Positions 340 through 16,152 are shown, counted from the first letter of the stretch. The stretch is 16,152 nt of DNA from Myxococcota bacterium (GCA_040752415.1 JBFMGU010000244.1:1-16152); one strand, 5' to 3'. Numbers and translations: made by a program. The notes: generated by a model from the letters alone, not told the origin.

Positions 340-353
340 GGTGGCCTCCCCAC

Positions 354-387
354 AAAAGAAAAACGGCGCCAGGTTGCCCCGGCGCCG
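354..387 (-). terminator. Rho-independent terminator after the SctI-like gene
   Basis: Minus strand CGGCGCCGGG-GCAA-CCTGGCGCCG (10-bp stem with one G-U pair, GNRA loop) followed by TTTTTCTTTT, about 27 nt after the stop at 415. Confidence 0.9.
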
Positions 388-414
388 CTGCGGAAACAGG
401 AGGATGGGAGGCGC

Positions 415-921
415 TCAGACCTGGGTCTGCATGGTCTGCTTGACGCCGCTGGTGGCCTTCTCCACCACCTTGCTGGTCAGCTCCAGCTCCTGGCTGAACT
501 TGTAGACGCCCGCCTGCATGGCCAGCAGCTCCTGGTTGGAGAACTGCTTGCCACTGGAGGCCTTGGCAATGATCTTGTCCAGCGCGTTCTGGCCGTCCAT
601 GACGCCGGACATCAGGCGACGGACACCGTCAGCCTTCTTGGGGTCCTTGACGGCTTCCACCGCCTTCACGCCGGTGGAGGGGTCCACGCCTCCGGTCTTG
701 GCGGCGTGCAGCACGTCCACGGCCTTGGTGGCCTCCTGCGTCTTCTGGACGTCCTGGACCTGCTGGGCCTGGTTGACCTGCTGGGAGAGCATCTTGTCGA
801 ACTTGTTCTCCATGCCGCCCTGCTGACCGCCCACCTTCTGGGCTTGCTGGGCCTGCTGCTGGACCTGCTGCATCATCTGCTGCGCGGCCTTGCCAAGTCC
901 GCCACCAATGGGGTCTGCCAC
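415..921 (-). CDS. Type III secretion inner-rod-like protein (SctI/EscI/YscI/HrpB2 family), 168 aa
   Basis: GTG start at 921 with a strong GAGGAGG RBS; Gln-rich N-terminus; C-terminus NQELLAMQAGVYKFSQELELTSKVVEKATSGVKQTMQTQ fits the inner-rod pattern (LL..Q.......EL..K.V.K....V..L...Q). Confidence 0.75.
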   Translation of the reverse strand: MADPIGGGLGKAAQQMMQQVQQQAQQAQKVGGQQGGMENKFDKMLSQQVNQAQQVQDVQKTQEATKAVDVLHAAKTGGVDPSTGVKAVEAVKDPKKADGVRRLMSGVMDGQNALDKIIAKASSGKQFSNQELLAMQAGVYKFSQELELTSKVVEKATSGVKQTMQTQV

Positions 922-973
922 GGCTACCTCCTCAAGGAGAACCAACCCGCCGGGGGGCGGGCTTGCGGAGAGT

Positions 974-1000
974 GTATCGCATCCGGGGGACGGCAGTTGT
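974..1000 (-). promoter_or_regulatory. Putative sigma28-type promoter for the rod-like gene (ACAACTGC-N11-TGCGATAC)
   Basis: Same motif as 3457-3483; -10 resembles the sigma28 consensus GCCGATAA, with 8-N11-8 spacing. Confidence 0.7.
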
Positions 1001-1018
1001 GTGGGATACCGGGATCCC

Positions 1019-1924
1019 TCAGTTGCGCGCCCGGCCCGGTGTCGCGGTGGCCGCTTCCCGCGTGATTTCCTGCAGGATGCGACTGAGCTTCTCAATGGCC
1101 TTGGCGTGCAGGCGGCTGGTCCAGCTCTTGGACAGGCCCAGCTGGTCGCCCACCTCCTGCAGGCTCAGCTCCTTGAAGTAGTACAGCGTGAGCAGCTTCT
1201 GTTCCTGCTCCGGCATGCGCGAGAGCGCCTCACGCACGTGCTTCTTCATCTCCACGTCGGCGAGGCGGGTGTCGATGGGGACGGCTTCCTTGTCCTCCAC
1301 CTGCAGGCCTTCCATGCCCTCCAGCGAGGTCACATAGATGGTGACGAGGTTGCTGACCTGCTCCGCCAGCTCGTTGATCTCGTCCTCGGTGGGCTTGTTC
1401 TCGGCGGTGGAGCCGGCCTGGCGGTCCGCCATGTTCTGCAGGAAGGCGTTGGCGCGTTCCTCAAAGCGGAGCTTGGCGTACTCGTTGCGGTTGACCCAGC
1501 CCATCTGGCGCAGGCCGTCATAGATGGCGCCGCGCACGCGGTAGTAGCTGAAGGTCATGAAGTTGGCGCCGAACTTGGGGTCGTAGCGGTCGGCTGCCTC
1601 CAGCAGGCCGATCATGCCGAACTCCATGAGGTCGTCGAACTCGATCTCCTTGGCCAGCGTCTTCTTGATCTTGCCGGCAATGGAGCGGACGAAGGGCTTG
1701 TACTGGTCAATCAGCGCGGCCTTGTCGACCTTGCCGTCCGGGGTGAGCGCGGGGCCACCCTTGTTGTTGCCCTTGGGCGGAGGGATGGCCCCCAGCGACT
1801 CTCCCAGGTTCTGCACCGCGACCTGCTTGGCGGCCGGGTTGGGCGGCGGTCTGGGGCTGGGCCCCGGGGTCCGCGGCACGGGTCGCGGCGTGGAACCGGG
1901 GATGGTGGGAAGCTTGTCTCGCAT
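1019..1924 (-). CDS. fliA: FliA/WhiG-family (sigma28) RNA polymerase sigma factor with a Pro-rich N-terminal extension
   Basis: Region 2 DDLMEFGMIGLLEAADRYDPKFGANFMTFSYYRVRGAIYDGLRQMGW; region 4 LTLYYFKELSLQEVGDQLGLSKSWTSRLHAKAI. Confidence 0.9.
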   Translation of the reverse strand: MRDKLPTIPGSTPRPVPRTPGPSPRPPPNPAAKQVAVQNLGESLGAIPPPKGNNKGGPALTPDGKVDKAALIDQYKPFVRSIAGKIKKTLAKEIEFDDLMEFGMIGLLEAADRYDPKFGANFMTFSYYRVRGAIYDGLRQMGWVNRNEYAKLRFEERANAFLQNMADRQAGSTAENKPTEDEINELAEQVSNLVTIYVTSLEGMEGLQVEDKEAVPIDTRLADVEMKKHVREALSRMPEQEQKLLTLYYFKELSLQEVGDQLGLSKSWTSRLHAKAIEKLSRILQEITREAATATPGRARN

Positions 1925-1943
1925 GCGCCGCCAGTGCCGTGTT

Positions 1944-2333
1944 TCAGGAGCGGGCCAGCTTGGCCAGCTCGGTTTGGAGCCTGCTCACGAAGGACGGGTC
2001 CGCCTCACACATCTCCGAGATGGACTCCTCCATGGCCTTGATGCCCACGCCCTTGGCGCCCTTCATCTTGTCCTTGACGACGAGGGACACGAACTTCCGC
2101 GTGGCCTCCTCCTTGGACGCCTTGCCGTCCTTGAGGTCTTTGGCCAGGCCCGTGAGCTCATCCAGCAGCCAGCTGCGGACCTGGCGGGCCTTCTCGGTGG
2201 AGTCCTCGGCGGCGCCGGTGGCGGTGACCATGCCCTTGAAGCTGGCCTTCTCCGCCTTGCCGGTCTTTCCGGTTTCCTTGGCACCGCCGGTGCCGGTGGT
2301 ACCCCGCGGCCCACCTCCCCTACCCACACGCAT
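1944..2333 (-). CDS. Hypothetical protein, 129 aa (low-complexity G/T/K N-terminus, helical C-terminus); candidate secreted regulator or anti-sigma factor
   Basis: ATG with AGGAG RBS; co-oriented, ends 19 nt before the fliA start; coding-like codon usage. Confidence 0.75.
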   Translation of the reverse strand: MRVGRGGGPRGTTGTGGAKETGKTGKAEKASFKGMVTATGAAEDSTEKARQVRSWLLDELTGLAKDLKDGKASKEEATRKFVSLVVKDKMKGAKGVGIKAMEESISEMCEADPSFVSRLQTELAKLARS

Positions 2334-2374
2334 GGTTCACTCCTGGTAGGCCACGGGCTCGTTTCCGCAGCAGG

Positions 2375-2794
2375 TCAGACGCGATCAAAACAACCGGCCT
2401 CATGGGCATCAAGCAGCGCCCGCGCAAAGTCCGCGGCCATGCCCTTGGGGTCCTGGCTGATGGCGCGCTCCAGCTCGGCCTTCCCCTCGTCGAACTTCTT
2501 GAGGAACAAGAGGCTCTCCCCCACGTGGGCACGGGCCAGCGCGCTCTCCGGCGCCACCGACAACGCTTCCCGGTGACACTTCAGCGCCTGCTGGAACTTG
2601 CCCTGGGCGAAGAAGAGGTTGCCGAGGGCCATGTGGGGCACGTCGGAGTGCGGGACCAGGGCGGAGACGCCGGCAAAGACCTCCTGGGCCTCCTTCCACT
2701 TGCCCAGCTCCATCATGAGGTAGCCCGCCTCCAAGAGGAGAGCGACCTCCTTCTGGGGCACGGGGACAATGCCTTGGACCATTTCCTGGTTCAT
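2375..2794 (-). CDS. Small TPR protein, T3SS chaperone-like (SctG/SctY/SycD-type)
   Basis: About three TPR units (LLEAGYLMMELGKWKEAQEVF; MALGNLFFAQGKFQQALKCHREAL; HVGESLLFLKKFDEGKAELERAI); GGAG RBS; directly downstream of the needle-like gene. Confidence 0.8.
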   Translation of the reverse strand: MNQEMVQGIVPVPQKEVALLLEAGYLMMELGKWKEAQEVFAGVSALVPHSDVPHMALGNLFFAQGKFQQALKCHREALSVAPESALARAHVGESLLFLKKFDEGKAELERAISQDPKGMAADFARALLDAHEAGCFDRV

Positions 2795-2840
2795 TGGGAT
2801 CTCCGCCTGGGTTTTCGCAGGCTAGAGGTGTTGGGCCCCA

Positions 2841-2881
2841 CAAAGCAACAGGGCGGCCCGACGCAACGCCGGACCGCCCTG
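2841..2881 (-). terminator. Stem-loop (leaky terminator or mRNA stabiliser) after the needle-like gene
   Basis: Minus strand CAGGGCGGTCCGGCG-TTG-CGTCGGGCCGCCCTG (15-bp stem with 2 G-U pairs) followed by an interrupted U-tract TTGCTTTG. Confidence 0.75.
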
Positions 2882-2901
2882 GTGTCAGATGCCCCGTCCT
2901 A

Positions 2902-3405
2902 TCAGCGGACGTTGTTGATGCTGTTCTTGACGGTGTCGTGCTTGGTCTTCAGCACGTTGGAGATGGTGGTGTACTGGCGGTTCTCGTTCTGCATCTTCTC
3001 CTGCAGCGTCAGGTACTGCATGGAGAAGGACATCTGCATCTCCTGCATCTTCTTGGTCTGGTTCAGCATGTCCTGCTGCGGGTTGCCCGTGGAGGCCACG
3101 TCCGTGCCCGCGCTGCCAAGACCGGTGCCGTTCCCGGGGATCTGCTGGGTGCCACCCGCGTAGCCCGTCCCGCCGGCGCCCATGGCCTGGGCACCACCGT
3201 TGACGGCGGCGGTGATGACGGTCCCACCCGGCACGAATGGCGCTGCCACCGAAGCCGCTCCGGCCGCGGCTCCGGCTCCGGTCGCAACGCCCGTACGCAC
3301 CATGGTCCCGAAAGAGCTGTTGGGAGTCTGCCGGGTGGAGCTCGTCTGGGTGGACATCTCCGTGGAGCCGCCCCGGGTGGTGTTGTTGGTGCTGACGATA
3401 GCCAT
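2902..3405 (-). CDS. T3SS needle/filament-subunit-like protein (SctF-like C-terminal helix) with a long Gly/Ala/Thr-rich N-terminus, 167 aa
   Basis: CAGGAG RBS; S/T/N-rich N-terminus like T3S export signals; C-terminus YLTLQEKMQNENRQYTTISNVLKTKHDTVKNSINNVR resembles SctF/EspA-type ends (SN..K...D....I..N.R). Confidence 0.7.
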   Translation of the reverse strand: MAIVSTNNTTRGGSTEMSTQTSSTRQTPNSSFGTMVRTGVATGAGAAAGAASVAAPFVPGGTVITAAVNGGAQAMGAGGTGYAGGTQQIPGNGTGLGSAGTDVASTGNPQQDMLNQTKKMQEMQMSFSMQYLTLQEKMQNENRQYTTISNVLKTKHDTVKNSINNVR

Positions 3406-3456
3406 GTTGTTCTCCTGTGTTGGGTGCCGTGGGGGAGTGCCCTCAAGGCAGCGAAG

Positions 3457-3483
3457 TTATCGCACCGGGCCCGTGGCAGTTGC
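3457..3483 (-). promoter_or_regulatory. Putative sigma28-type promoter for the needle-like gene (GCAACTGC-N11-TGCGATAA)
   Basis: Same motif as 974-1000; -10 TGCGATAA matches GCCGATAA at 6 of 8 positions. Confidence 0.7.
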
Positions 3484-3524
3484 TTCTCCCTGGGGGATCC
3501 AGGGCGGGCCCACCATCAAGGGAA

Positions 3525-3920
3525 TCAGCGAGCCGCGCCTCCGCGCGCGCCTTTCTTCTTGGCGTCCGCGGGGTTGGCGGCCGGGGGACTGGCCAGCTTC
3601 TGCTTGGTGTTCCAGAGGTACTCCAGCAGCTCCTGGGCGTGCTGGTAGGCCTGCAGCGCCTTCTTGGCCCCGGCCTTCTCCTTGTTGTTGCCGGTCTTGG
3701 CCAGCTCCTCCAGCGCCGCCACGCGGGCTTCCAGGCCGGAGCGGTCCAGTGAGTCGGACTCAATCAGCTTCTCGATGGTGGGGAAACCCACGCCGGGGGG
3801 CGGCTCCTCCTTGCCCTTCTTCTTGCTGAGGGCGGCGGGCGCCGAGGGCGCCACGGGGCGCTTCACCGCGTCGCTGATCTTGAACGTGCCCATGCCGGGC
3901 GCGGTCTTGTCCTTGGACAT
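3525..3920 (-). CDS. Hypothetical protein, 131 aa; possible SctE/YscE-like needle co-chaperone
   Basis: Likely start at ATG 3920 (MSKDKTAPG...), since the upstream ORF extension overlaps the divergent gene; helical hairpin LEARVAALEELAKTGNNKEKAGAKKALQAYQHAQELLEYL; located immediately upstream of the needle-like gene. Confidence 0.65.
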   Translation of the reverse strand: MSKDKTAPGMGTFKISDAVKRPVAPSAPAALSKKKGKEEPPPGVGFPTIEKLIESDSLDRSGLEARVAALEELAKTGNNKEKAGAKKALQAYQHAQELLEYLWNTKQKLASPPAANPADAKKKGARGGAAR

Positions 3921-3965
3921 GTGCTGGACCTCAGGGCGCCAGAGCCGACGCCAGACAGGGCTCGC

Positions 3966-3995
3966 ATGGTCCGCGCCGCGGCCCCGCGCTGTCAA
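3966..3995 (-). promoter_or_regulatory. Putative sigma70-type promoter at the head of the T3SS-like module (TTGACA-N18-GACCAT)
   Basis: Perfect TTGACA (3995-3990), weak -10 GACCAT (3971-3966), 45 nt upstream of ATG 3920. Confidence 0.45.
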
Positions 3996-4076
3996 GGTAG
4001 GCCGCACGCGCGGTGGCTGCGTGGCCCGGCCGTGTGGGCCCTGGTAGGGTCCGCGACCCCGCTTGTTGGAGCACGC

Positions 4077-6863
4077 ATGCCCCGCCTCACCCGCCTGTCC
4101 AGCCTGGCCTTCCTGCTTGCCCTGTCCGCCTGCCCCACCTGCGTGCAACCCGAGCCCGGTCCCGGACTGGAAGGCGACGAGTGCGGCGCGGAGCGGGAGT
4201 GCGACACGGGCCTGCGCTGCGTGGAGGCGCACTGCGTGGCGGCGGACCTGGATGGGGGCAACGGGCAGTCGTCGTCCGGCGGTGCTTCCTCCAGCAGCAG
4301 CGGCGCGCCCGACGCGTGGACGCCGGAGTGCAACATCAAGCTGGACTGCGCGGTGAACGGCAGCGTGGACGGACGGGATTGCGTGGACGGTCGTTGCGTC
4401 TGGCTCTCATGCGAGTCCGACCTGGAGTGCGGCGCACGCTTCTGCGTGGAAGGCAGGTGTGAGGACCGCACCCGCTGCGAGTCCGACGAGGAATGCGCGG
4501 GGGAAGGCGGCGTGTGCGAGGCGGGCGTGTGCGTGGCGGCCTGCGCCGACGACGCCCAGTGCAACGAGGGCGCGCCGCTGCCGGTGTACACGTGCTCGGA
4601 GGGTCGGTGCCGGCAGCGCTGCCTGGGCGACTTCACGTGCCTGCTGGAAGGCGGCATCTGCGAGGGCGGCGTGTGCATTCCGCCGCTGTGCGAGGTGGAC
4701 GAGGATTGCGCCGAGCAGGGTCAGTACCTGGAATGCGCCTCCGGCCGCTGCACCCCCTACGAGCCCTGCACCGACGACGCCGCGTGCGGCAGCGCGACCT
4801 TGTATTGCGCGGAGGACGGGAAGTGTCGCGACCGGCCGGCGTGCGCGCGGGATGCGGATTGCGCGGGCGGGTTGTGCGTCTCCGGCGTGTGCCAGCCGGC
4901 CGCGGAGTGCGGGCCCAACGTGCCGGCCTGCGGCCTCTCCGAGGAGTGCGTGGGCGGGGTGTGCGTGCCGGCGCTGGAGTGTCGCGGCACCGGGGATTGC
5001 GCGGCGCCCCAGATCTGTCGCGCGGGCGTGTGCGCGGACCCGCCCACCTCGCAGGTGGCCAAGATCGTCATCTCCACGCCGTACGGCCTGTGCGACCCGC
5101 TGCTGGACGCGCGCGCGGCCTGCACGCTGACCATGCGCCCCGGCGAGAGCGCGCCGCTGGGGGCGTTGGCGCTGGATGCGGCGGGCCGGATCCTGGTGGG
5201 TGTGGCGCTGACCTGGGCCACCGACCAGCCCAGCATGGCCGACGTGCTGGCCGGTCCCTCGACGGAGACGCTGCTGACCGCGGGCCTGGACAGTGGCACC
5301 GCGCGCATCACCGCCAGCGCGCAGAACGTGACCAGCCCGGCGGTGAGCGTGGTCAACCTGGGCGCTCCGCCCGCCGGCGTGCGCGTGGCCGTCACCGACG
5401 CACGCAGCGGCAGCCCGGTCTCCGGCGCGATTGTGCGCGTGAACGACCAGGAGGAGACCACGGGTCCCGCGGGTCTCGTCGAGCTGGAGCCGGAGGCCAC
5501 GAGCGCGCCCTACACCGTCAGCGTGTTCCACCAGGCCTTTGACTACGTGACCTTCTTCTCCCTGCCGGCCGAGCAAGGCGGTGGGCTGGACGTGGTCATT
5601 CCGCTGGCCTCGTTGCAGCCGCCGCAGCAGTCCGCGGGGCTGCGCGGCACGGTGAACCTGGAGTCCGCGACGAGCCAGGGTCCGGTGGAGATGGCGCTGG
5701 CCGGCGTGAGCGCGCCCAACGTGGCGGACCTCTCGTTCTCGCGCCTGCTCGGGGACACCATCTTCGTCGACATCGAGCTGCCCATCATCGGCAGTCAGCA
5801 GATTCCGCTGCCGGGTGGCATCACGCTCTCGGCGGAAATCCCGCTGGTGGGCGCGCAGACGTTCAAGGACTCGTTCTACGCGCTGGGCAGCGGTGGGCGG
5901 CGCATTGCGTGGGCGTTCGGCGGTCGCCTGCCGTTTGCGGCGGTGCAGGGCCTGTTGGGACTGGGTGACCCCGTCACCGCGATCCTGGCGCTCATCCCGT
6001 ACTTCGAGGGGCTGACCCATGGGCTGGCCACCGGCTACCTGCTCACCGACCTGCCCTACGTCTACGACGGCGACACCGACTTCGACGGCGAGCCCGACGT
6101 GAACAACAACGGCGTCACCGACGAGTACGTGCCCGACTACTTCGCCTTCCCGCAGGCACCGCTCACCGTGCGGCAGGAGCAGACGCTGTACACCAGCGTG
6201 TCGTTCAGCGGGTTCCCCGACGGCGCGGCCGCTCCCCAGGCGCTGGTGGCCGCGGGCGCGCGCGTGCCCGGTCACGGCTTTGTCCCGCTGGGCCTGACCA
6301 GCCTGGCCCCCGACGAGGCCGCGGCCGGGTTCCAGCCCATCAAGCTGGCGCCGCGCTACGGCGGGCTGGAGTCCGGTGATTACGCCGTGTCCACGTTCGC
6401 GTTTGGTCCCGCGCCCGGCGGCGCGCCCACCGAGCTGAGCCTGCGCACCGCCGCGTTCGAGGTGCTGCCGTCGGAGGTGGACCTGGGCGCCATGATGCCG
6501 TTCGCCACCGGGAGCACCTACCGCGTGACCGCGAATCCGTCGCCGACGCGCACGTTGAATGTCGCGGGCGTGCCGGGCTCGGACTTCCACCGCGCCGTGA
6601 TTGCCGGTGACGACGGACGCTGGGTGATCTACCTGCCCGGCGGCGCCGGCGCACAGAACATCACCGTGCCCGACAGCCCCGCGAACCTCCCCGAGCGCGG
6701 TCTCTCCGGTCTGTACGTGGAGGCCATCCAGGTGTCCGCCGCGCTGCGCACCGCCGACCCGGCCAACCAGGTCCGCGCGCTTGTGAGCGGAGAAGGTCAG
6801 GGACTCACCCGTCTGGGCAATGAGACCGAGGGCCTCAGCCGCGGCGCCTTGCAGGCTCCGTGA
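4077..6863 (+). CDS. Large surface lipoprotein, 928 aa: lipobox, 11 four-Cys repeats, Ig-like and carboxypeptidase-regulatory-like beta domains, Ca-binding-like acidic loop
   Basis: ATG 4077 with GGAG upstream; signal MPRLTRLSSLAFLLALSA-C (lipobox LSAC); Cys repeats; GTARITASAQNVTS (Big_2-like); VAVTDARSGSPVSGAIVRV...TTGPAG (carboxypeptidase regulatory-like); DGDTDFDGEPDVNNNG. Confidence 0.85.
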   Translation: MPRLTRLSSLAFLLALSACPTCVQPEPGPGLEGDECGAERECDTGLRCVEAHCVAADLDGGNGQSSSGGASSSSSGAPDAWTPECNIKLDCAVNGSVDGRDCVDGRCVWLSCESDLECGARFCVEGRCEDRTRCESDEECAGEGGVCEAGVCVAACADDAQCNEGAPLPVYTCSEGRCRQRCLGDFTCLLEGGICEGGVCIPPLCEVDEDCAEQGQYLECASGRCTPYEPCTDDAACGSATLYCAEDGKCRDRPACARDADCAGGLCVSGVCQPAAECGPNVPACGLSEECVGGVCVPALECRGTGDCAAPQICRAGVCADPPTSQVAKIVISTPYGLCDPLLDARAACTLTMRPGESAPLGALALDAAGRILVGVALTWATDQPSMADVLAGPSTETLLTAGLDSGTARITASAQNVTSPAVSVVNLGAPPAGVRVAVTDARSGSPVSGAIVRVNDQEETTGPAGLVELEPEATSAPYTVSVFHQAFDYVTFFSLPAEQGGGLDVVIPLASLQPPQQSAGLRGTVNLESATSQGPVEMALAGVSAPNVADLSFSRLLGDTIFVDIELPIIGSQQIPLPGGITLSAEIPLVGAQTFKDSFYALGSGGRRIAWAFGGRLPFAAVQGLLGLGDPVTAILALIPYFEGLTHGLATGYLLTDLPYVYDGDTDFDGEPDVNNNGVTDEYVPDYFAFPQAPLTVRQEQTLYTSVSFSGFPDGAAAPQALVAAGARVPGHGFVPLGLTSLAPDEAAAGFQPIKLAPRYGGLESGDYAVSTFAFGPAPGGAPTELSLRTAAFEVLPSEVDLGAMMPFATGSTYRVTANPSPTRTLNVAGVPGSDFHRAVIAGDDGRWVIYLPGGAGAQNITVPDSPANLPERGLSGLYVEAIQVSAALRTADPANQVRALVSGEGQGLTRLGNETEGLSRGALQAP
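4182..5033 (+). repeat. Eleven Cys-rich protein repeats C-x5/6-C-x4-10-C-x4/5-C
   Basis: Counted in the translation, e.g. CESDLECGARFCVEGRC, CESDEECAGEGGVCEAGVC, CARDADCAGGLCVSGVC, CRGTGDCAAPQICRAGVC. Confidence 0.85.
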
Positions 6864-8822
6864 TCAACCCGCCGCGCGCGGTGAGCGGCGCACGCGCTTC
6901 TCGCCGACGCGCAGGGTGATGCGTGCGTCGTCCAGGTGCTCCAGGAAGGGGATGACGTACTTGCGCGTCTCCCCCATCAGGTCCTTGAACTCCTGCGTGG
7001 TGATGCCGCCCTTCTCGTCGATGAAGGCGAGCGTCCTGGCCACCAGCGCGTCGTACGGCGTGCGCGCGAAGTGCAGGTCATCCTTCACCCGCACCAGCTT
7101 CTGGCTGCTGACCAGCGCCTTGGTGGCGTCGGAGACCGCACCCTCCGAGACGCCCAGCGACGTGGCGAGCTGACCGCGCGAAGGTGGCGCCAGACCCGCT
7201 TCCACGTGCGCGTGTTCCACCTTGGACAACAGCTCCGGGCTCACGCCCTTGGGGCGGTGGGAGGCCAGTCGCACCCCGTCGCCCTCGACGACGACCGCGT
7301 TGCTCTTCAGCACGCCGAGAAGCGCGGAGAAGCGCGCGCGCTCCAGCACCTGGCCGTCCACCTTCAGCGTCGTGCGCATCTCCTCCAGCGGGGCATGCGG
7401 CTCCAGCGGATGATCCTGGTGGTAGCGCGTGAGCGCGGCCTGCAGTCGCGTGGTGAATTCCGCGAGGCGGTCGGGGTGCCAGAGGACTTCGGTCTCGCCC
7501 AGGCGGGCGCGACGGAGCTGGGCGCGCCCCACCGCGTCGTCCACCGCCTTCTTCACGTCCTTCCAGGGCAGCCGTCGACGAAGCTGCGCGAGGTCCGCGC
7601 CGAGGGCGCCCGTGTCCCAGACCGCCTGCCCAAGTCGCTGCGGCAGCCCGCCGGAACGCAACGCCTCCAACGCGCTGGCGGTGTCGGGCCGGCCGCGGCG
7701 ACGACGGGGAGGATGCGGATCCAGGATCTCCCCGCCCCCAAACGTCGCCCCCTGCCCGGGCAGACGACGATGTCCGCGCAGGATGAACCGCTGCCCAGGA
7801 CGACACACCATCTCGCCCTCGAGAATCAGCTGCACCACCGACGTGGTTCCCGGCTCCAGCCCCGGTGATTCGCCGGCAGGCTCGTAGACCAGACGCAGAC
7901 GCGCTGGCACCGCGGCGGCGCCCACGTGCACCATCACGGAAGCGTGGTCGCGCAGGCGCGGCGCTTCAGCGAGCGTGCGCAGTTGCACGTCGACACGTCG
8001 GGTGGGCACCAGCGCTCCCGTCGGGCAGAGCACCGCGCCGCGCGGCACGTCCGTCACCGCCACGCCCGGCAGGTTCACCGCGGTGCGCCATCCCGGCTGC
8101 GCCTGCGTCACCGTCTTGCCATGGCTCTGCAGCCCGCGGGCACGCACGCCCTTGGGGCCGGGATGCACGTCCACCTCGTCGTCGACCTTGAGGGATCCAC
8201 CGGAGAGCGTCCCGGTGACGACGGTGCCAAACCCCTTCACGCTGAAGACGCGGTCCACCGGCAAGAAGGGCACTCCGTCGACGGGACGGGGCGGGAGGGC
8301 CTTCACCGCCTTCAGGAGCTCCGCGCGCAGCGTCGGGAGCCCCACCCCGGTCTGTGCTGACACCGGCACCACCGGCACCTCTCCCAGCCCCGCGCCCTGC
8401 AGCTGCGCGCGCACCTCCTCGGCGGCCAGCTCGACGAGCTCCGGCTCCACGCGGTCCACCTTGGAGAGCGCCACCACCATCCCGCGCACGCCCAGCAGGC
8501 TGGCAATGGCCACGTGCTCCCGCGTCTGCGGCATCACGCCTTCATCCGCGGCCACCACGAGCAGCAGGAGATCCAGGCCCCACGCGCCGGCCACCATGGT
8601 GTGCACCAGGCGCTCGTGCCCGGGCACGTCGATCACGCTGGCGGTGACGCCTGAGCCGAGATCCCAGGAGGCGAACCCCAGCTCGATGGTGATGCCGCGG
8701 CGTTTCTCCTCAGGGAGGCGGTCGGTGTTGGCGCCGGTGAGGGCCTTCACCAGCGTGCTCTTGCCGTGGTCGATGTGGCCTGCGGTTCCAATGGCGACGT
8801 GCATGGTAGGTGCGTCCTGCAT
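6864..8822 (-). CDS. selB: Selenocysteine-specific translation elongation factor SelB
   Basis: IGTAGHIDHGKS, DRLPEEKRRGITIELGF, IDVPGHE, VAADEGVMPQTREH, VDRVFSVKGFGTVVTGT, RTAVNL; C-terminal winged helix TRKYVIPFLEHLD...TLRVGEKR; start at ATG 8822 or 8804. Confidence 0.95.
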   Translation of the reverse strand: MQDAPTMHVAIGTAGHIDHGKSTLVKALTGANTDRLPEEKRRGITIELGFASWDLGSGVTASVIDVPGHERLVHTMVAGAWGLDLLLLVVAADEGVMPQTREHVAIASLLGVRGMVVALSKVDRVEPELVELAAEEVRAQLQGAGLGEVPVVPVSAQTGVGLPTLRAELLKAVKALPPRPVDGVPFLPVDRVFSVKGFGTVVTGTLSGGSLKVDDEVDVHPGPKGVRARGLQSHGKTVTQAQPGWRTAVNLPGVAVTDVPRGAVLCPTGALVPTRRVDVQLRTLAEAPRLRDHASVMVHVGAAAVPARLRLVYEPAGESPGLEPGTTSVVQLILEGEMVCRPGQRFILRGHRRLPGQGATFGGGEILDPHPPRRRRGRPDTASALEALRSGGLPQRLGQAVWDTGALGADLAQLRRRLPWKDVKKAVDDAVGRAQLRRARLGETEVLWHPDRLAEFTTRLQAALTRYHQDHPLEPHAPLEEMRTTLKVDGQVLERARFSALLGVLKSNAVVVEGDGVRLASHRPKGVSPELLSKVEHAHVEAGLAPPSRGQLATSLGVSEGAVSDATKALVSSQKLVRVKDDLHFARTPYDALVARTLAFIDEKGGITTQEFKDLMGETRKYVIPFLEHLDDARITLRVGEKRVRRSPRAAG

Positions 8823-8937
8823 ACTCCCCCACCCGTGGCGCCGTCCTCCTGCCCGCGGTCCGGGTGGCGGTGGCTGGGATGGGACGGAAAGCCGACGCGC
8901 GACCGCCGGCACCCTTGGTCTATGATGCCGCCGCCCC

Positions 8938-10374
8938 ATGTCCGTCCAGCGCTACGAATGCCCCCGCTGCCAGAGCGTCTTCGTCCCCGCGGAAGCGGTG
9001 AGCGAGGGCGCCTTTGCGCGTTGTCCCTCGTGCGGGGGCGTGGCGGTGCCCGCAAGCAAGCCGCCGGGCCCCAGCCGCGAGCGCCTGCTGCACAACGAGG
9101 GTGACGGGTCGAGCATCACGGGGGCCTCCGACCCGCCGGAGCGCAGCGCGCCCGACTTCACCGCGCCCCCGCCCGCGCCTCCGCCCGCGACGATGTGGCC
9201 GCAGGACGCCACCATGCCCACGAGCAGCGGCCTGTTCGCCGCGCTGCTCAGCGGGAGCCCCGACCTGGAGCTGAGCGGCCCGGCGCTCTCGGCTCCGCCC
9301 CCGTCGACACCGCCGCCCGCCGCGACGGAGGAGGCCCCGCCGGAATCCGCGCCGGAAGCGCCGGGCGGCGGCCTGTTCGCCTCGCTCATCTCCGGCACCC
9401 CCGACCTGGTCCCCAGCGCCGCACCGCGCGCGAAGGTGGGCGGAGGCGCCGCGGAGCTGGGGATCCACGACGAGGAACGCAGCGGCGACGACCCCGACCG
9501 CACCACGACGTACGGCACCGGCGACGAGGCCACCCACGCCGCGACTTCCGAGCTGACCCTGCCGCCAAATTCCCAGGAGTTCCTGCTGCCGCCGGTGACC
9601 GGCACCGCGGAGCTGATCAGCACGTACCACGGCGAGCCAACGATGGACGGGGAGCTGCCCCGCCCGCCCCCGTCGGCGGCGCCCACGGGCGAGGCACCCG
9701 CACCGGAGGAGTCTCCGTACCTGGACAAGGAGACCTTCAACGACGACGAGTTCGCCTCACTGCTCGGCGGCTCCTTCAACACCGCGCCGGTGCCCGAGGA
9801 GACGGTGCGCGCGCCCGTCGTCGACGGCTGGGTGGTGAACGCGCCGGGCAAGCCTCCGCCGCTCAAGAAGCCCGTCGAGGCACCCGCGCCGCCACCCGCC
9901 AAGCCCAAGACCGACAACGCGGCGAGCCTGCTGGCCGGGTTGGCGCCGATTCCGTCGGTGGCGTCGTTGGGACCGGCGCCGAAGCTGGGCAGCGGAATCA
10001 CGCCGCTCCGCGTGGCCGCGGTGCTGGTGAGCGCGCTGCTGCTGGGAACACTCAGCGGCGTGGGCCTGGCGCCGCCTCCGCCCACCCCCGCCTCGACGGG
10101 ACCAGAGGGCGCGCGGGTACGGCTGGCGGAAGCGCGTCGCCTGCTGGCGAGCGGGCAGGACAAGGAAGCCGTCCAGGTGCTGCACGCGGCGCTGGCGTTG
10201 GATGACAAGCTGGCCGAGGCCATGCGCGACCTGGGCGTGGCCTACGCGCGACAGGAGAAGTACGAGGAGGCGGCGCGCGCGTACGAGGCGTACCTGGAGA
10301 TGTCGCCCAAGGCTCCCGACGCCATCGAGATGCGCACCAGCATCGAGCGCTACAAGAAGGGCGGCCCCCGGTGA
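8938..10374 (+). CDS. Zinc-ribbon / Pro-rich linker / transmembrane / C-terminal TPR protein
   Basis: N-terminal CPRC...CPSC; long Pro/Ala/Glu-rich region; hydrophobic VAAVLVSALLLGTLSGVGL; TPR AMRDLGVAYARQEKYEEAARAYEAYLEMSP. Confidence 0.85.
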   Translation: MSVQRYECPRCQSVFVPAEAVSEGAFARCPSCGGVAVPASKPPGPSRERLLHNEGDGSSITGASDPPERSAPDFTAPPPAPPPATMWPQDATMPTSSGLFAALLSGSPDLELSGPALSAPPPSTPPPAATEEAPPESAPEAPGGGLFASLISGTPDLVPSAAPRAKVGGGAAELGIHDEERSGDDPDRTTTYGTGDEATHAATSELTLPPNSQEFLLPPVTGTAELISTYHGEPTMDGELPRPPPSAAPTGEAPAPEESPYLDKETFNDDEFASLLGGSFNTAPVPEETVRAPVVDGWVVNAPGKPPPLKKPVEAPAPPPAKPKTDNAASLLAGLAPIPSVASLGPAPKLGSGITPLRVAAVLVSALLLGTLSGVGLAPPPPTPASTGPEGARVRLAEARRLLASGQDKEAVQVLHAALALDDKLAEAMRDLGVAYARQEKYEEAARAYEAYLEMSPKAPDAIEMRTSIERYKKGGPR

Positions 10375-11288
10375 CAACGGGAGTGGCCGCGCGGACGGTG
10401 GCCACGGTGCTGCTGGCCGCCGCGCTCTGCCCGTTACCGGCATGGGCGCAGGCGGAGGAGCCACCACCACTCCCGCCGCCGCTCCCCGACGAGGAGATGG
10501 CGCCGGAGCCCACGCCGTCCTTCCCTCCCGCGCCTCCGCCCACGCACCCGCGCCCCGCGCCCACCCCCACCGACGACGAGCCGGAAGCGCGCGCGTTGGG
10601 ACTGCATCCCGCGTCGCTGGTGGGTGGCGCGGCGGGGTTGTGGGTGGCCGCGTTGGGCTGCCTACCGCTGAGTGGCCTGGCCTGCGCGCTGGGGACGGGG
10701 CCGGTGCTGGGCTACAGCCAGGGTGGCGACACGAACCTGCTCTACGTGGGCTGCTTTGGCGGCGCGGGCCTGGCGGCGGCGGCGCTGCTGGGGATGGCGG
10801 TGCCGGTGGGCATCTCCGTCATCCTCACCTCCGTCAACGACATGCTGCTGGGCGGGCGCTCCAAGCTGTTCTGGGTGCTGGGCGCGGCGTACGCGGCGGT
10901 GTGGACCCTGGGCGTGGCGACGGCACTGCCGCTGATCGCCGGGATCCTGTTCAACACGCTGGTGGTGGTTCCCTGGCTGTACGAGCGGCAGCTGGCGCGC
11001 CAGAAGGCTCGACAGACCGGGGTGGACAGCGAGACGGCGGCCGCCGCCGGGGCGAGCCTGCTGGTGGCCACGCTGGGCACGGGCGTGCTGACGGTGCTGG
11101 CGCTCTCCCTGGTGATGCTGGCGCCACTGGCCCTGGACGTGATCACGCGGGCACCGGAGCCGGAGCTGGAGGCGGAGACGTACGAGGTCATTCCGCCGGA
11201 GGAAGGCCGGCCGCGGACGTGGCGGAAGAAGCGGGTCATCCGGCCCGGCGAGCCCACCACCAGCCCGCAGGACGCCGTGACGTTCTGA
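10371..11288 (+). CDS. Multi-pass membrane protein with signal peptide and Pro-rich N-terminus, function unknown
   Basis: GTG start overlaps the previous TGA (GTGA coupling); signal ...LCPLPAWA-Q; about 4-5 hydrophobic segments. Confidence 0.75.
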   Translation: MTTGVAARTVATVLLAAALCPLPAWAQAEEPPPLPPPLPDEEMAPEPTPSFPPAPPPTHPRPAPTPTDDEPEARALGLHPASLVGGAAGLWVAALGCLPLSGLACALGTGPVLGYSQGGDTNLLYVGCFGGAGLAAAALLGMAVPVGISVILTSVNDMLLGGRSKLFWVLGAAYAAVWTLGVATALPLIAGILFNTLVVVPWLYERQLARQKARQTGVDSETAAAAGASLLVATLGTGVLTVLALSLVMLAPLALDVITRAPEPELEAETYEVIPPEEGRPRTWRKKRVIRPGEPTTSPQDAVTF

Positions 11289-11327
11289 CCGGCCGCCGCG
11301 GAAATCCCGCGCCAACCGGGCGGGCGC

Positions 11328-11531
11328 TCAGTGCTGCAGCGCCAGGATTGCCGCCTCCGTGGGCCGGGGCGGGGCCACGCCGGTCTTGCCCGCCACCTTC
11401 CTCCGCGCCGCCTGACGACGACGCAGCACACACAACGCGTGGATGAAACGCTCTGAGACCAGGGACTTGGGCGACGCCTCCCCCTCCTGCTCTTCCTCTC
11501 CGGGCAACGGCCCGGTTCGCTCCGTGGCCAT
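11328..11531 (-). CDS. Small hypothetical protein, 67 aa (MATERTGPLPGEEEQEGEASPKSLVSERFIHALCVLRRRQAARRKVAGK...)
   Basis: ATG 11531 with GGGAGGA RBS; fills the gap between neighbouring genes without overlap; preceded by a sigma54 consensus promoter. Confidence 0.65.
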   Translation of the reverse strand: MATERTGPLPGEEEQEGEASPKSLVSERFIHALCVLRRRQAARRKVAGKTGVAPPRPTEAAILALQH

Positions 11532-11558
11532 GGCTTCCTCCCTTTCCGCTCCAGACCC

Positions 11559-11575
11559 AGCAACCCCTGTGCCAG
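11559..11575 (-). promoter_or_regulatory. Sigma54 (RpoN) -24/-12 promoter
   Basis: Minus strand CTGGCACAGGGGTTGCT versus consensus YTGGCACGRNNNTTGCW, with correct GG-N10-GC spacing. Confidence 0.8.
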
Positions 11576-11654
11576 GGAAATCCCGGGCCTCCGAAAGGTG
11601 GCCGGTGTCCGTGGAGGCGGACACGGCGACTGAAGCGCAATAGAATCCCGCGCC

Positions 11655-12752
11655 ATGGCACGCCCAACCGAGCCGCTTGTGGGCTTTGGCCCGTCCGTGC
11701 ACCAGCGCGTGCGCAAATTCACCGGAGACGCTCCCATCCGCGCCCCCCGACGAGAGATGCCGATGGGGGCACGTCGTGAGGCGCTGGCCGCGGCGCGCAA
11801 GATCCGTCTGAGCCCGTTGTTGTCCCGTCCCGACCTGGATGCGTTGGAGCGCGGCCTGGAGCTGCTGGACGAGCTGTGCGGTCCGCTGCCGCCGACGAAG
11901 ACGCTGGATCAGCCGCTGTGGGGCCCGGCTGAGCTCAAGGAGCTCACCGAGCTGCTGCCCGAGCTGAACAAGCTGGTGGTGACGCGCGACCCGCTGTTCG
12001 TGCACCACCTGGCGGAGTGGCGCAAGGAGAAGCGCCCGCACAGCGAGATGGCGCTGCGGCTGCGCATTGGCTTTGCGTGCGGGTACCTGCCGGTGGACCC
12101 GCAGCCCAAGGACGCGAGCACGGTGCCGTGGGAGGTGCGCGACCTGCAGGTGGTGGAGCCGGTGGCCGCGGCCCTTCCGGCGCAGCTCAAGAAGCTGGGC
12201 AACCTGCGCACGCTGCGACTGGCGCCGCTGGCTCCGGAGGTGAAGGAGCTGCAGGAGGTGAAGGAGGAGTGGCGTCGGACGGCGGACCGCGACAAGGCCA
12301 ACATCACCGCGCGCATGGCCAAGGTGAAGGGCATGTTGCGGGTGCGCCTGCTCGCGGAACCGCTGCCCGCGGCGCTGGGCACCGACGAGGTGCGCGGCAT
12401 CCATGTGCCGGGCGAGCTGCTGGCCATCAGCAAGCTGCGCGGTCTGCGGGGCGTGGCGGCGCTGGGCATCCTTTACGCGCTGTCCGAGGAGCACTACCGC
12501 CAGGACGAGCGCGAGCGTGCACTGTTCGACCAGAAGCTGGAACGCGCGATGCGGCGGGAGCGCATGGCGGACGATCCCGCGCGGGCCTACGCGCTGGCGG
12601 TGACGGCGTTTGCGGTGGCGCCCTCGCTGGTGGAGGAGAAGTGGCCCAAGACGCACACGCACATGCTGGACCGGTTTGATACATCCCTGGCGGCTTTTGA
12701 CGGTGGAGCGCTGCTCCGCCCCGCCATGGAGAGCCTCCTGGCGCTGCGCTGA
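11655..12752 (+). CDS. Hypothetical protein, 365 aa (helical, no recognised family)
   Basis: Long ORF with strongly GC-rich third positions; TAGAAT -10 element 8 nt before the ATG; alternative starts near 11757. Confidence 0.8.
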   Translation: MARPTEPLVGFGPSVHQRVRKFTGDAPIRAPRREMPMGARREALAAARKIRLSPLLSRPDLDALERGLELLDELCGPLPPTKTLDQPLWGPAELKELTELLPELNKLVVTRDPLFVHHLAEWRKEKRPHSEMALRLRIGFACGYLPVDPQPKDASTVPWEVRDLQVVEPVAAALPAQLKKLGNLRTLRLAPLAPEVKELQEVKEEWRRTADRDKANITARMAKVKGMLRVRLLAEPLPAALGTDEVRGIHVPGELLAISKLRGLRGVAALGILYALSEEHYRQDERERALFDQKLERAMRRERMADDPARAYALAVTAFAVAPSLVEEKWPKTHTHMLDRFDTSLAAFDGGALLRPAMESLLALR

Positions 12753-12757
12753 CGGAG

Positions 12758-13483
12758 ATGTCCTCGTGCCCAGGAGAGGGGACGAGCCGTTTCAACAATC
12801 CCTTCGTGCGGCCGGAGGTCCGGGCGCGGCTGAAGCACCACGTCACGACGCAAGCGCCAAAGCCCGCGCCCGCGCGGCCGGCGGTGCGCCCTGCCCCCAC
12901 GGAGCACGGACCCGGGGACGACGCGCGACTGTGGCTGGAAGCCGTGCGCGGTGCCACGCCGATGGCGGTGCTGCACCCGGGCAAGCGGCCCGTGCTGCCA
13001 ATGCGCGTGGACCTGGAGCGCCCGGAGGTCGACCCCGACGACGAGGCGTTCGAGGAGCTGTGCCGCTTCGTGCGCGGGGAGGGCGTGTTTGACCTGGCGG
13101 ACCAGGACGAGTTCGTGGAGGGAGCGCGCGCGGGATTGGACCCGCGGGTGATGGCGCGGCTGCGCGCGGGTGAGTTCAGTGTGCAGGGTTACGTGGACCT
13201 GCATGGGCGCGTGGTCGACGAGGCGTACGACGAGCTGCGTGGGTTTCTCCGTCGGGCCAGGCTGGAGGCGCGTCGCTGCGTCCTGGTGGTGCACGGGCGC
13301 GGGCGGCACAGCAAGGACCGCATTCCGGTGCTCAAGGAGAAGGTGGTCCAGTGGCTCAGCCGCGGAGCGATGAGCCGACAGGTGCTCGCGTTCTGCACCG
13401 CCAGGTCCCACGACGGGGGAGCGGGCGCCATGTACGTGTTGCTGCGGAGGAAGGGAGAGGAGCTTGCGGTGGGGAACCGGTGA
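12758..13483 (+). CDS. Smr/MutS2 C-terminal domain protein (SmrA/SmrB-like endonuclease)
   Basis: LRAGEFSVQGYVDLHG, VLVVHGRGRHS, VLKEKVVQWL, VLAFCTARSHDGGAGAMYVLLR are hallmark Smr motifs. Confidence 0.9.
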   Translation: MSSCPGEGTSRFNNPFVRPEVRARLKHHVTTQAPKPAPARPAVRPAPTEHGPGDDARLWLEAVRGATPMAVLHPGKRPVLPMRVDLERPEVDPDDEAFEELCRFVRGEGVFDLADQDEFVEGARAGLDPRVMARLRAGEFSVQGYVDLHGRVVDEAYDELRGFLRRARLEARRCVLVVHGRGRHSKDRIPVLKEKVVQWLSRGAMSRQVLAFCTARSHDGGAGAMYVLLRRKGEELAVGNR

Positions 13484-13528
13484 CGGGCACGGACGGGTGC
13501 GCAGCGTGACGACGGAGAACGCGGAACG

Positions 13529-14344
13529 TCAGTGCTTGTCCTTGTGCTTGCCGAGGTGGGGTCCGGCGCCGTCCCAGGTCTGCGTGGTGTAGCCCTGCGG
13601 GACGTCGAACAACGCCTCCGAAACCGGCACGCTCTCCACCCTGGTCACGCGCTCCTCCACCTTGAGTTGACCGCTGCGCTGATCCACCACCGCCATCTCC
13701 ACGGGAATTCCGTCGAGGAAGGCGCGGGTGAAGCCTCCGTCGTCGCCGCTGACGCCGGCATCCGCCATGTCCTTGGCCAGTTTCTGCAGCATGTGCCGGT
13801 CGCCCTCGGAGAGCTTGACGCCGCGGTGCACGCAGCTGGTGCCCACCCACTCGTCATTGAGCGTCTCCTTGACCTCTTCACACGCAAAGCCATTCACCGT
13901 GCGCTTCTTGCCCGTGGCGGTGCGCTTGTACGCGCCCTTCTGCCGCGCCGCCTGCGCCCGACGCTGCAGCCGGATGGCGTCCTCCACCTGCGCGCGCACG
14001 TTGGGCGGCATGGAGGACAGCTCCTTCTGCGCACGCGCCACCGCCTCGTCCGCCTCCTTGCGCGCGATCTCCGTCATCTCCCCCAGCTGCTTGAACGTGA
14101 TCACCCGCGCCGTCTTCTTGCGGTGATCCACCTCGATCATCAGGCCGTTGCGTGCGTCCAGGATGTGGCTCTCGCCCTCCGAATCCACGCGGATGCCGCG
14201 CGGGCTGATGTACACCTTCCGCTCCCGCTCACCCTGGCTGGCGCCGGTGCGGTCCTTCACCACCTCCGTCCCGGTGACGACGAGATCCGCCCGCGCACTG
14301 CCCACCGCGAGCAACATTCCCAAGACTCCCACGTAGCGCTTCAT
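13529..14344 (-). CDS. Secreted/periplasmic protein, DUF4412-like, 271 aa
   Basis: Likely start ATG 14344 (signal peptide MKRYVGVLGMLLAVGSARA-D); motifs TGKKRTVNGFACEE and LFDVPQGY are typical of DUF4412-like proteins. Confidence 0.75.
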   Translation of the reverse strand: MKRYVGVLGMLLAVGSARADLVVTGTEVVKDRTGASQGERERKVYISPRGIRVDSEGESHILDARNGLMIEVDHRKKTARVITFKQLGEMTEIARKEADEAVARAQKELSSMPPNVRAQVEDAIRLQRRAQAARQKGAYKRTATGKKRTVNGFACEEVKETLNDEWVGTSCVHRGVKLSEGDRHMLQKLAKDMADAGVSGDDGGFTRAFLDGIPVEMAVVDQRSGQLKVEERVTRVESVPVSEALFDVPQGYTTQTWDGAGPHLGKHKDKH

Positions 14345-14825
14345 GACCCCGCACCATGGCAAGGCGGGCGAGCCCGTGCAAACTCCTCCGCGGCCTGGTT
14401 CCGTCGGACGCGGAGGCACGGACCGTCCGGACGTGGGCGTTGCTCGCTTGCTGCGATCCCACGCGTGCGTTGCTACACCACACCACGGAGCCCGGCCTTG
14501 GCTCCTTGCCTTCCCTGAAGCTCCTGCATGCCGCCGACGAGAAACAGCCGGCTGCGTGCAGGGGCTTCGCCTTTTCCGCCGTCGAGCGTGCGCGATCCAC
14601 GCGCGTGACGACGCCCGCGCGCGAACGAGGCTGCGCTGACGGGAGGCCCCACGCCCGGCCCTGTCCGCGACGGAGCACACCCTCCCGGGTTCCGGGATGA
14701 CCGGCACACCTGTGCGCGCCGTGACGTCGGGGTTTCCGCGCTCCCCGGCCTGCGCGCGGTCCCCCCGTCGGCGAGATCCCGGTGGAAGCGGTTGCGCACG
14801 TGACGCGCCGCCGACGGGAGGAACC

Positions 14826-15404: not shown

Positions 15405-15569
15405 ACGACGGAGCCGGTTCTCGTCGCCACTCCGATGCGTCGCGGCAAAACGCGGCACGCCCCACCCCACGTGGCACGTCGCCACGACGGAGAAACGGGT
15501 GTCATCCGCGCTCCGCCGTGATACGGATGCCACACCTGTGAGTGCGAAGCGGCCTTCAAGGGTGGTGCA

Positions 15570-16031: not shown

Positions 16032-16152
16032 GGGGCTGCGTCTAAACAAGATTGCCCATTCCGTCGTGGCGGGCGAACACCTAACCCCCCACGTTCATGC
16101 CGTTGCGCCCGCTCGCCCCCCTTCCCCACACCCGCTCACCGTCGTCAACCAT

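Follow-up and report, generated by a model that had tools for sequence, protein, structure and literature searches.

A detached gene cassette of a Myxococcota-type type III secretion system encodes a needle-like protein, a SctI-like rod protein and a FliA/WhiG-family sigma factor

Introduction

The myxobacterial type III secretion system (T3SS) has been placed at the root of all injectisomes, and in the accessible text of the same source SctF and FliG are missing from the non-flagellar T3SS of the Cystobacterineae (Abby and Rocha 2012, PMC3459982). The T3SS* of Myxococcus xanthus (mxan_2434-2464) is described, in the available parts of two later papers, as a system without secretin, needle and translocon that is needed for prey lysis; its effectors and the exit route of its substrates are given there as unknown (PMC10433427, PMC12075869). 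SctI is listed for the myxobacterial system in the available text of PMC3459982 and PMC10433427. In this study, we analyzed a stretch of 16,152 nucleotides from a Myxococcota bacterium (GCA_040752415.1, JBFMGU010000244.1:1-16152; the whole stretch is called the window) and focused on a cassette of six genes, A to F, at positions 415-3920. The cassette is part of a Myxococcota-type non-flagellar T3SS and is detached from the apparatus genes in this genome. Judged from their sequences, its products include a protein with a needle-like C-terminal domain (B), a SctI-like rod protein (F) and a FliA/WhiG-family sigma factor (E), and a sigma-28-type motif precedes B and F. No mention of such a needle-like gene, sigma factor or motif in the myxobacterial T3SS was found in the accessible parts of the literature, a scope outside which lay the supplements and the 2022 paper that defined T3SS*, where a prior annotation is possible.

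Three groups of known systems are useful for comparison. The needle operons of other injectisomes are ordered yscE-F-G-H-I-J in Yersinia, ascE-J in Aeromonas and cdsE-F-G in Chlamydia. The class 3 genes of flagella are controlled by the sigma factor FliA and the secreted anti-sigma factor FlgM; a CGATAA-type -10 element is the hallmark of sigma-28 promoters, and their consensus -35 element is TAAA. Dedicated sigma factors of the extracytoplasmic function (ECF) type are encoded with T3SS genes in Pseudomonas syringae (HrpL) and Bordetella (BtrS).

Results

The cassette is part of a non-flagellar T3SS

The window is one complete contig (C162) of a draft genome of 520 contigs, 11.0 Mb and about 70% G+C. 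The first-pass annotation had read 415-3920 as six co-oriented genes, which agrees with the open reading frames (ORFs) found there, all on the minus strand and all with a third-position GC signal of 0.85-0.98. The genes and the signals between them are as follows.

3525-3920, minus strand: gene A, 131 amino acids (aa); conserved GFP.IE motif and two C-terminal helices; no family; present in cassette-type loci only
3457-3482, minus strand: P_B, sigma-28-type motif CAAC-N16-CGATAA, 51 bases upstream of the ATG of B
2902-3405, minus strand: gene B, 167 aa; no signal peptide; 58-aa helical C-terminal domain with partial support as a member of the SctF superfamily
2849-2881, minus strand: hairpin of 15 pairs (12 G-C) with a T-rich tail, directly 3' of the stop codon of B
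2375-2794, minus strand: gene C, 139 aa, predicted tetratricopeptide repeat (TPR) chaperone of the LcrH/SycD-CdsG class
1944-2333, minus strand: gene D, 129 aa; disordered, basic, Gly-rich N-terminal 50 residues and four helices; no family
1019-1924, minus strand: gene E, 301 aa, FliA/WhiG-family sigma factor by profile, with an N-terminal extension of about 65 aa
974-999, minus strand: P_F, sigma-28-type motif variant CAAC-N16-CGATAC, 97 bases upstream of the ATG of F
415-876, minus strand: gene F, 153 aa, SctI-like inner-rod protein by profile; frame open to 1095

Proteins of the window and of its genome were compared by tblastn with 20-kb regions of 20 relatives and with 80 further loci, from which seven duplicates were removed before distinct loci were counted; one counted locus (L125) is from a genome flagged as unpublished. 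The succession A-B-C-(D)-E-F recurs among relatives. In 13 of 32 distinct cassette loci sctJ lies within 1.5 kb 3' of F and is followed by a FliG-like gene, and in Archangium, a Myxococcaceae metagenome-assembled genome and others the cassette runs straight into these two genes. The more distant relatives, Anaeromyxobacter included, have short loci with the order B-F-sctJ (13/13 distinct loci, all with sctJ within 1.5 kb 3' of F), most of which go on into sctQ-R-S-T-U-V; sctJ directly follows F in 26 distinct loci. Searches with gene B detected it in 34 of 41 genomes, from many families of the phylum, and in no fewer than 581 genome stretches. The conserved linkage to sctJ and sctQRSTUV in relatives places the cassette in the Myxococcota-type non-flagellar T3SS, as the first-pass annotation had supposed from the gene order.

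The apparatus genes of this T3SS lie on five other contigs, in agreement with the view of the same annotation that the basal body is encoded elsewhere, and the system is split into at least six loci:

Contig C143: sctQ, a FliO-like gene, sctR, sctS and sctT (SctR model, 263 bits, above cut-off)
Contig C278: sctU, alone among unrelated genes, with a PspA-like gene beside it
Contig C138: sctV (hrcV model, 832 bits, above cut-off), beside a toxin-antitoxin-like pair and a Ser/Thr kinase gene
Contig C157: sctJ and a FliG-like gene, in the middle of a 66-kb contig, directly after the gene of an unrelated 723-aa membrane protein
Contig C491: sctN (569 bits), alone among unrelated genes

On contig C157, sctJ (L028:9927-10835) is directly followed by the gene of the FliG-like 339-aa protein (L028:10847-11866, plus strand; FliG_C 2.1e-9, FliG_M 1.7e-5). 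This protein has the same place in 13 distinct cassette loci of relatives and may be a substitute for SctK. In this genome, no T3SS-type secretin scored above cut-off.

The window is a whole contig that ends only 414 bases beyond F, and therefore detachment is not demonstrable from its sequence alone. The claim that neither flank holds sctC, sctD, sctJ or an export-gate gene was right for 3921-16152, where a Pfam search of eight ORFs found no T3SS family (the matches were SelB, TPR, Smr, DUF4412 and similar); the other flank is no more than the 414 bases. It is the rest of the genome, with sctJ far inside another contig, that demonstrates the detachment. The same layout, without sctJ within 1.5 kb of F, is found in 19 of the 32 distinct cassette loci, so the detachment is real and lineage-wide.

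This genome also carries flagellar genes, in a phylum known for gliding. A complete-looking set is spread over contigs C24 (flgE, motAB, fliLMNPQR, flhBAFG, fliA, flgFGAHI, flgM and flagellin) and C357 (flgBC and fliEFG), and the genome has two flagellin-family genes overall. The second gate set, that of the T3SS, exceeds the cut-offs of the hrcV and SctR models and not those of FlhA and FliP. FlgM was detected in 57 of 151 sampled Myxococcota genomes, and flagella may be common in uncultured lineages.

The sigma factor and a sigma-28-type motif

Profile matches identify E as a FliA/WhiG-family sigma factor, in line with its first description as FliA-type. E covers 223 of the 224 positions of the FliA_WhiG model TIGR02479 (160.5 bits, E-value 5e-47; under the cut-off of 189.6 bits), and Sigma70_r2 (50.6 bits) and Sigma70_r4 (50.3 bits) both exceed their Pfam cut-offs. 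The FliA of the flagellar cluster is only 28% identical to E.

Alignment of the DNA upstream of B revealed a motif of CAAC, 16 (sometimes 17) bases and CGATAA. A search for CAAC-N13-18-CGATA[ACT] within 160 bases before a gene found it upstream of B in 43 of the 50 loci with a C gene and in 5 of the 40 without one; it precedes F in 17/48 loci and A in 0/30. The putative -10 elements before B and F are of the GCCGATAA type expected of cognate FliA/WhiG promoters. A sigma-54-type element, GGCA[CT]-N5-[TC]TG, precedes B in 12 of the 40 loci without C and in none of the 50 with C, and B appears to have been swapped between sigma-54 and sigma-28-type control. In the short loci that have no sigma gene, TGGCAC-N5-TTGC stands 13-36 bases before B (L044, L049, L052, L053, L054, L061 and others). 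The first-pass annotation had overlooked both motifs of the cassette (3482-3457 and 999-974) as well as the hairpin at 2881-2849. Its proposal of a separately regulated module is supported by the cassette's own promoters; these are, however, the predicted sigma-28-type ones before B and F, inside the cassette, and not the one that it had proposed.

The strict motif has 14 sites on both strands of the 11-Mb genome, compared with 0-7 for seven scrambled versions, and for 11 of the 13 other sites an ORF begins 7-81 bases downstream; 12 exact-pattern sites are outside the cassette. Two of these ORFs encode paralogues without signal peptide and with needle-like C-termini (LSNMMKSMHDMQMTPIR), for which the motif stands 30-81 bases upstream:

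Contig C401, L216:2323-3594, minus strand: needle-tailed paralogue of 423 aa
Contig C454, L217:386-1420, minus strand: needle-tailed paralogue of 344 aa

Both are candidates for T3SS substrates of tip, cap or translocator-like type. Several other motif-preceded products have neither a signal peptide nor a Pfam family. In Archangium gephyra there are 22 motif sites, against 2 for a reversed-pattern control, 21 of them with an ORF that begins 0-90 bases downstream. The products behind them include B itself, a 72-aa protein of SctF size, a PG_binding + Amidase_2 protein (7.8e-35), a LysM + CHAP protein, a Peptidase_S8 protein (9.5e-44) and a protein with RTX repeats and Peptidase_M91, the NleD effector family (1.5e-39).

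Motif enrichment tracks the presence of E. Six genomes with an E orthologue have 7, 12, 17, 21, 63 and 29 motif sites (control 3, 2, 4, 2, 5 and 14), whereas four genomes in which the query found no E orthologue have 0, 0, 1 and 0 (control 0, 0, 1 and 1); since the genomes compared are relatives and their counts are not independent, this is a consistent pattern rather than a statistical test. In one genome (G316, that of locus L092) an identical 26-base string, CAACTCGCGCCCTCGTCGTACGATAA, occurs about 10 times and is probably a repeated element that inflates the motif count. From the association of motif and sigma gene we infer that E recognizes the motif. A motif belonging to the flagellar FliA was considered and set aside, because the motif is absent upstream of flagellin, flgL and flgM in this genome, and because flagellin was found in none of four cassette-bearing genomes (A. 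gephyra is among them, and one is flagged as unpublished), where the best FliA/WhiG match is the cassette sigma factor itself. In the present, flagellated genome, control of the motif by the flagellar FliA is still conceivable.

The SctI-like protein F and the needle-like protein B

Profile-profile comparison supports the first description of F as a SctI-like protein. Compared with SctI sequences from Yersinia enterocolitica, Aeromonas, Shigella and Mycetohabitans, the F family reached 80.7% in hhalign (E-value 1.3e-5), in an alignment of 53 columns at the very C-termini, and the cross-controls (B against SctI, F against SctF) remained below 1%. The match of F to the NCBIfam SctI model NF038054 covers the C-terminal 52 residues with 13.5 bits (E-value 0.057), under the cut-off of 39 bits. 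Single-sequence and profile searches of PDB sequences with F gave nothing relevant.

B consists of a conserved N-terminal motif (RQTP..FG ... AAPFVPGG.V..AAV), a variable linker rich in Gly and a C-terminus of 58 residues with strong conservation; the conserved N-segment is moderately hydrophobic (AAPFVPGGAVVSAAV). Its homologues are named 'hypothetical protein' or carry a chance label, and a Pfam domain is given for 2 of the 120 listed. The first-pass reading of B as the needle holds for the C-terminal domain, which is linked to the Pfam family T3SS_needle_F (PF09392) through intermediate family members, and fails for B on its own, which matches no SctF model and has twice the length of SctF. 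Membership of this domain in the SctF superfamily is partly supported by the sequences, and by the same comparisons B is not a canonical SctF needle subunit.

The link through intermediates has several parts. B family members elsewhere score 18-23 bits against PF09392, and B orthologues of about 195 aa, from genomes of 9-10 Mb, align to positions 14-71 of the 71-position needle model. PF09392 was matched in 55 of 301 Myxococcota genomes (E-value at most 0.01 per genome) and in none of 14 control genomes, and the match exceeded the cut-off in 5 of the 301, on related ORFs. A hidden Markov model (HMM) of the C-terminal domain of B also matched 19 of 30 PF09392-matched ORFs; a 20th (L204) was judged by eye. 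These ORFs range from SctF-size proteins of 72-93 aa to proteins of 300-540 aa with a needle-like tail. In the ESM Atlas cluster nearest to B, 19% of the members carry T3SS_needle_F, which we take as a lead only. The best match of PF09392 in the genome of the window has an E-value of 0.225 and lies on another contig, and the model detected no short SctF-like gene in this genome. Proteins of SctF size that combine a needle-like tail with the turn A(A/S)P(E/D)E are encoded in some Myxococcaceae and Archangiaceae, at L198 (three tandem ORFs of 91-106 aa), L205 (93 aa) and L225 (72 aa, in A. gephyra).

Genes A, C and D

C resembles the chaperones of T3SS translocators. In hhalign it reached 96.3% over 126 columns against LcrH, AcrH and IpgC and 78.5% against YscY. 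In NCBIfam it matched CdsG (NF052304) with 1.6e-8 and 34.8 bits (cut-off 170 bits, not reached) and LcrH/SycD (TIGR02552) with 6.3e-8 and 32.4 bits (cut-off 104.8 bits, not reached). With this profile likeness and these sub-cut-off scores, C is therefore a class member and neither equivalog. Searched against PDB, the C profile found generic TPR proteins only. The gene had been called a TPR chaperone of the needle type; it keeps the T3SS-type TPR chaperone part of that name and loses the comparison to YscG, as given below.

No Pfam or NCBIfam family and no PDB match, by single sequence or profile, was found for A. D had been compared with YscH/YopR, a comparison that was dropped after an hhalign value of 0.4%; in the comparisons of A, C and D with YscE, YscG and YopR, every value was below 7%. 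Almost all cassettes, that of Archangium among them, have a D-like ORF between C and E (D-HMM E-value about 1e-13 to 1e-14), and because of this position next to the sigma gene, D is a candidate regulator of E. With FlgM it shares the overall architecture only, a disordered N-terminus followed by four helices. A, B and F were all below 1% against FlgM in hhalign.

Other signals and neighbouring genes

The hairpin at 2849-2881 is a terminator or an attenuator between B and C. Hairpins of this kind are often found after genes of abundant filament subunits. A smaller hairpin lies at 944-963, between P_F and F. Two further signals bound the cassette:

352-389, minus strand: intrinsic terminator, a 12-pair stem (9 G-C) at 389-362 followed by the T-run TTTTCTTTTGT
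3990-3995, minus strand: TTGACA, -35-like, in the gap of about 156 bases between A and a divergent lipoprotein gene

The former confirms the strong terminator first placed at 354-387. For the sigma70-like promoter placed at 3966-3995, the TTGACA at 3995-3990 is perfect, but no acceptable -10 element lies downstream of it and a consensus promoter scan called nothing there. The product of the divergent gene (3921-6863, plus strand) is large and has Cys-rich repeats; a signal peptide of the lipoprotein type lies about 53 codons into the frame. Next to this gene is that of the selenocysteine elongation factor SelB (6864-8822, minus strand). Of the words sampled from the window, no more than about 5% occurred in four public runs from soil or rhizosphere, which included one metatranscriptome. 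The pieces aligned were short, with 90-99% identity over conserved parts, namely the gene of the sigma factor and the C-terminal ends of the B and F coding sequences. These pieces come from relatives, most of them diverging from the window further along, and have no bearing on the expression of the cassette.

Discussion

The system described here shares with the myxobacterial T3SS and T3SS* the absence of a secretin, the components SctJ, SctI, SctQRSTUV and SctN, LcrH-like chaperones and the occurrence of long and short forms of the locus, and the same set of gene families is found in the loci of Archangium and Anaeromyxobacter. It differs in being split over at least six loci. In addition, the myxobacterial systems lack SctF and FliG as described in the accessible text of their sources, whereas here B is found before sctI and a FliG-like gene after sctJ. 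The sigma-28-type motif with its putative regulon, and a gene assigned to the SctF superfamily at the sctF position of a system held to be needle-less, are new in this study.

The cassette repeats the order of the needle operons of Yersinia and Aeromonas, with a small protein, a needle-like protein, a TPR chaperone, a small protein and a rod protein and, in relatives, sctJ next. Its likeness to the Chlamydia operon comes only from the NCBIfam match of C to CdsG. In contrast to these operons, B has roughly double the length of SctF, no relationship of A, C and D to YscE, YscG and YopR was detectable, and a sigma gene is inserted before the rod gene. With flagellar class 3 genes the cassette shares a FliA-family sigma factor, a CGATAA-type -10 element and putative late targets that are axial or secreted and not part of the basal body; it has CAAC as its -35 element, its targets are in a non-flagellar T3SS, and it holds no homologue of FlgM. 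Like HrpL and BtrS, E is a dedicated alternative sigma factor encoded with T3SS genes and has scattered substrate genes as likely targets, but it is of the group 3 FliA/WhiG type and not of the ECF type.

We consider it fairly probable that the cassette is a late axial-component module of a secretin-less Myxococcota-type T3SS with a flagellar-type sigma tier of its own. In such a module, E would drive the CAAC-N16-CGATAA promoters before B and F and probably also those of dispersed substrate genes. F would act as a SctI-type adaptor and be seated on the export gate formed by SctRST. Because B has no signal peptide, the T3SS would be its export route, and C, perhaps together with A, would bind it and keep it cytoplasmic. 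With its C-terminal helices, B may then polymerize by stacking on F to form a short needle or distal rod in the periplasm, with the 110-residue N-terminal half on the outside. Owing to the hairpin at its 3' end, the transcript of B would be the abundant one, C, D and E would be supplied by read-through, and D would regulate E. A more ambitious version, about which we are doubtful, is that the 'needle-less' myxobacterial T3SS has a needle-like B on a SctI adaptor together with a class 3 checkpoint, in which E would be held by a secreted D until the apparatus is complete and B, SctI, axial-like proteins and effectors would then be turned on.

Several results weigh against a late needle and rod module. 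B gave nothing at an E-value of 1 or below in Pfam and NCBIfam, including PF09392 (cut-off 29.4 bits), and no needle protein was found for it in PDB by phmmer or with a profile of 21 sequences. Compared directly with four SctF sequences, the B family reached only 2.8% in hhalign (E-value 0.016), with the exact C-termini in register, and B has 167 aa where these four have 76-87. Its AlphaFold model shows one long helix at 109-166 (predicted local distance difference test score, pLDDT, 67-87), the rest at low confidence and no hairpin; the predicted template modelling score of the monomer is 0.20, and the model is therefore too poor for a fold search. The matches of E and of F to their own family models are under the cut-offs. 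Two partners of the needle were tried and rejected: A as a YscE-like co-chaperone, with 0.1% in hhalign against YscE and AscE, which removes the identity first given to this gene, and C as a YscG-like needle chaperone, with 0.2% against YscG/AscG and a likeness to translocator chaperones instead. D was rejected as FlgM (PF04316), having no Pfam match and 5.9% over 14 columns against 28 Myxococcota FlgM sequences, and a Foldseek search of its AlphaFold model (pLDDT 59) against PDB gave a best E-value of 0.84 and no significant fold. The motif is absent before sctJ, sctV, sctU and sctQ, and therefore E does not account for the expression of the apparatus genes.

A further objection concerns B-like proteins outside the phylum. 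The last 55 or so residues of B recur almost unchanged in Chitinophagaceae and Bacteroidia (L113, L120, L130, L131, L133 and L143) and in Acidobacteriota (L110, L122, L127, L132, L137, L138, L141 and L145), most often in proteins with a Sec signal peptide. These proteins have 147-181 aa, with a coiled coil before the tail, and are encoded among housekeeping genes; one of them is by eye the same as the Myxococcota copy L047 over about 55 residues, at 38% against about 65% G+C. No FHIPEP gate gene was found in three Bacteroidota genomes with B-like proteins, whose completeness is not known. Such Sec-exported domains without the gate imply that the domain works without a T3SS somewhere.

These results bear on an alternative in which B is a secreted T3SS substrate of translocator, tip or effector type and not a filament subunit. 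C would then be its class II chaperone of the LcrH type and retain it in the cytoplasm, the C-terminal domain would act independently in the envelope of the producer or the prey, and the SctI and sigma tier would be unchanged. Such a role agrees with the ranking of C, which is closest to LcrH/SycD, then YscY, and remote from YscG, with Sec export of the domain where no T3SS gate was found, and with the moderately hydrophobic, conserved N-segment of B. Many Myxococcota proteins of 300-540 aa share this type of C-terminus, two of them behind the motif in this genome, and the 72-aa A. gephyra protein behind the motif could be the real needle there. We nevertheless regard a substrate role as unlikely. 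It is opposed by the position of B, which in all 13 distinct short loci takes the place of sctF directly before sctI-sctJ; by the strong hairpin and the promoter of its own, which fit a high-copy structural subunit; by the nearly full-length alignment of the Pfam needle model on B family members; and by the search of this genome with PF09392, which detected no short SctF-like gene.

It is very improbable that the cassette belongs to the flagellar regulon, with a second FliA, flagellar chaperones and axial proteins. The complete-looking flagellar clusters on contigs C24 and C357, the FliA-like character of E and the sigma-28 type of the -10 element would suit a flagellar role, but the same cassette and motif occur in Archangium and in a Myxococcaceae genome, where the cassette abuts sctJ, and no flagellin was found in the four cassette-bearing genomes. 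Moreover, the flagellar cluster has its own, divergent FliA and its own FlgM, the motif is missing from the flagellar genes flagellin, flgL and flgM, and the second gate set matches the T3SS models rather than FlhA and FliP. We give equally little credit to a decaying, functionless remnant of a T3SS broken by rearrangement. The dispersal of the T3SS genes over at least six contigs and the absence of a T3SS-type secretin above cut-off point that way; against decay, the six frames are intact with full codon bias, many families of the phylum have preserved the gene order, both motifs and the protein sequences, and more than half of the distinct cassette loci (19/32) have the detached layout in common.

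The late axial-component module that we favor offers three handles on the Myxococcota T3SS: a conserved, unannotated gene at the sctF position, putatively of the SctF superfamily, a dedicated FliA-type sigma factor and a motif that picks about 14-22 genes per genome, several of which encode hydrolases of the cell wall or of proteins that lack signal peptides themselves. An intermediate between flagellum and injectisome would be expected to have a sigma tier of the flagellar type and a FliG-like gene beside sctJ. The Sec-exported B-like proteins of Bacteroidota and Acidobacteriota could mean that the 'needle' helix also has a role outside T3SSs. If the checkpoint version is true, the motif would mark the T3SS* secretome, and the amidase, the LysM-CHAP hydrolase, the subtilase and the NleD-family protease of A. 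gephyra would explain why T3SS* is needed in prey lysis.

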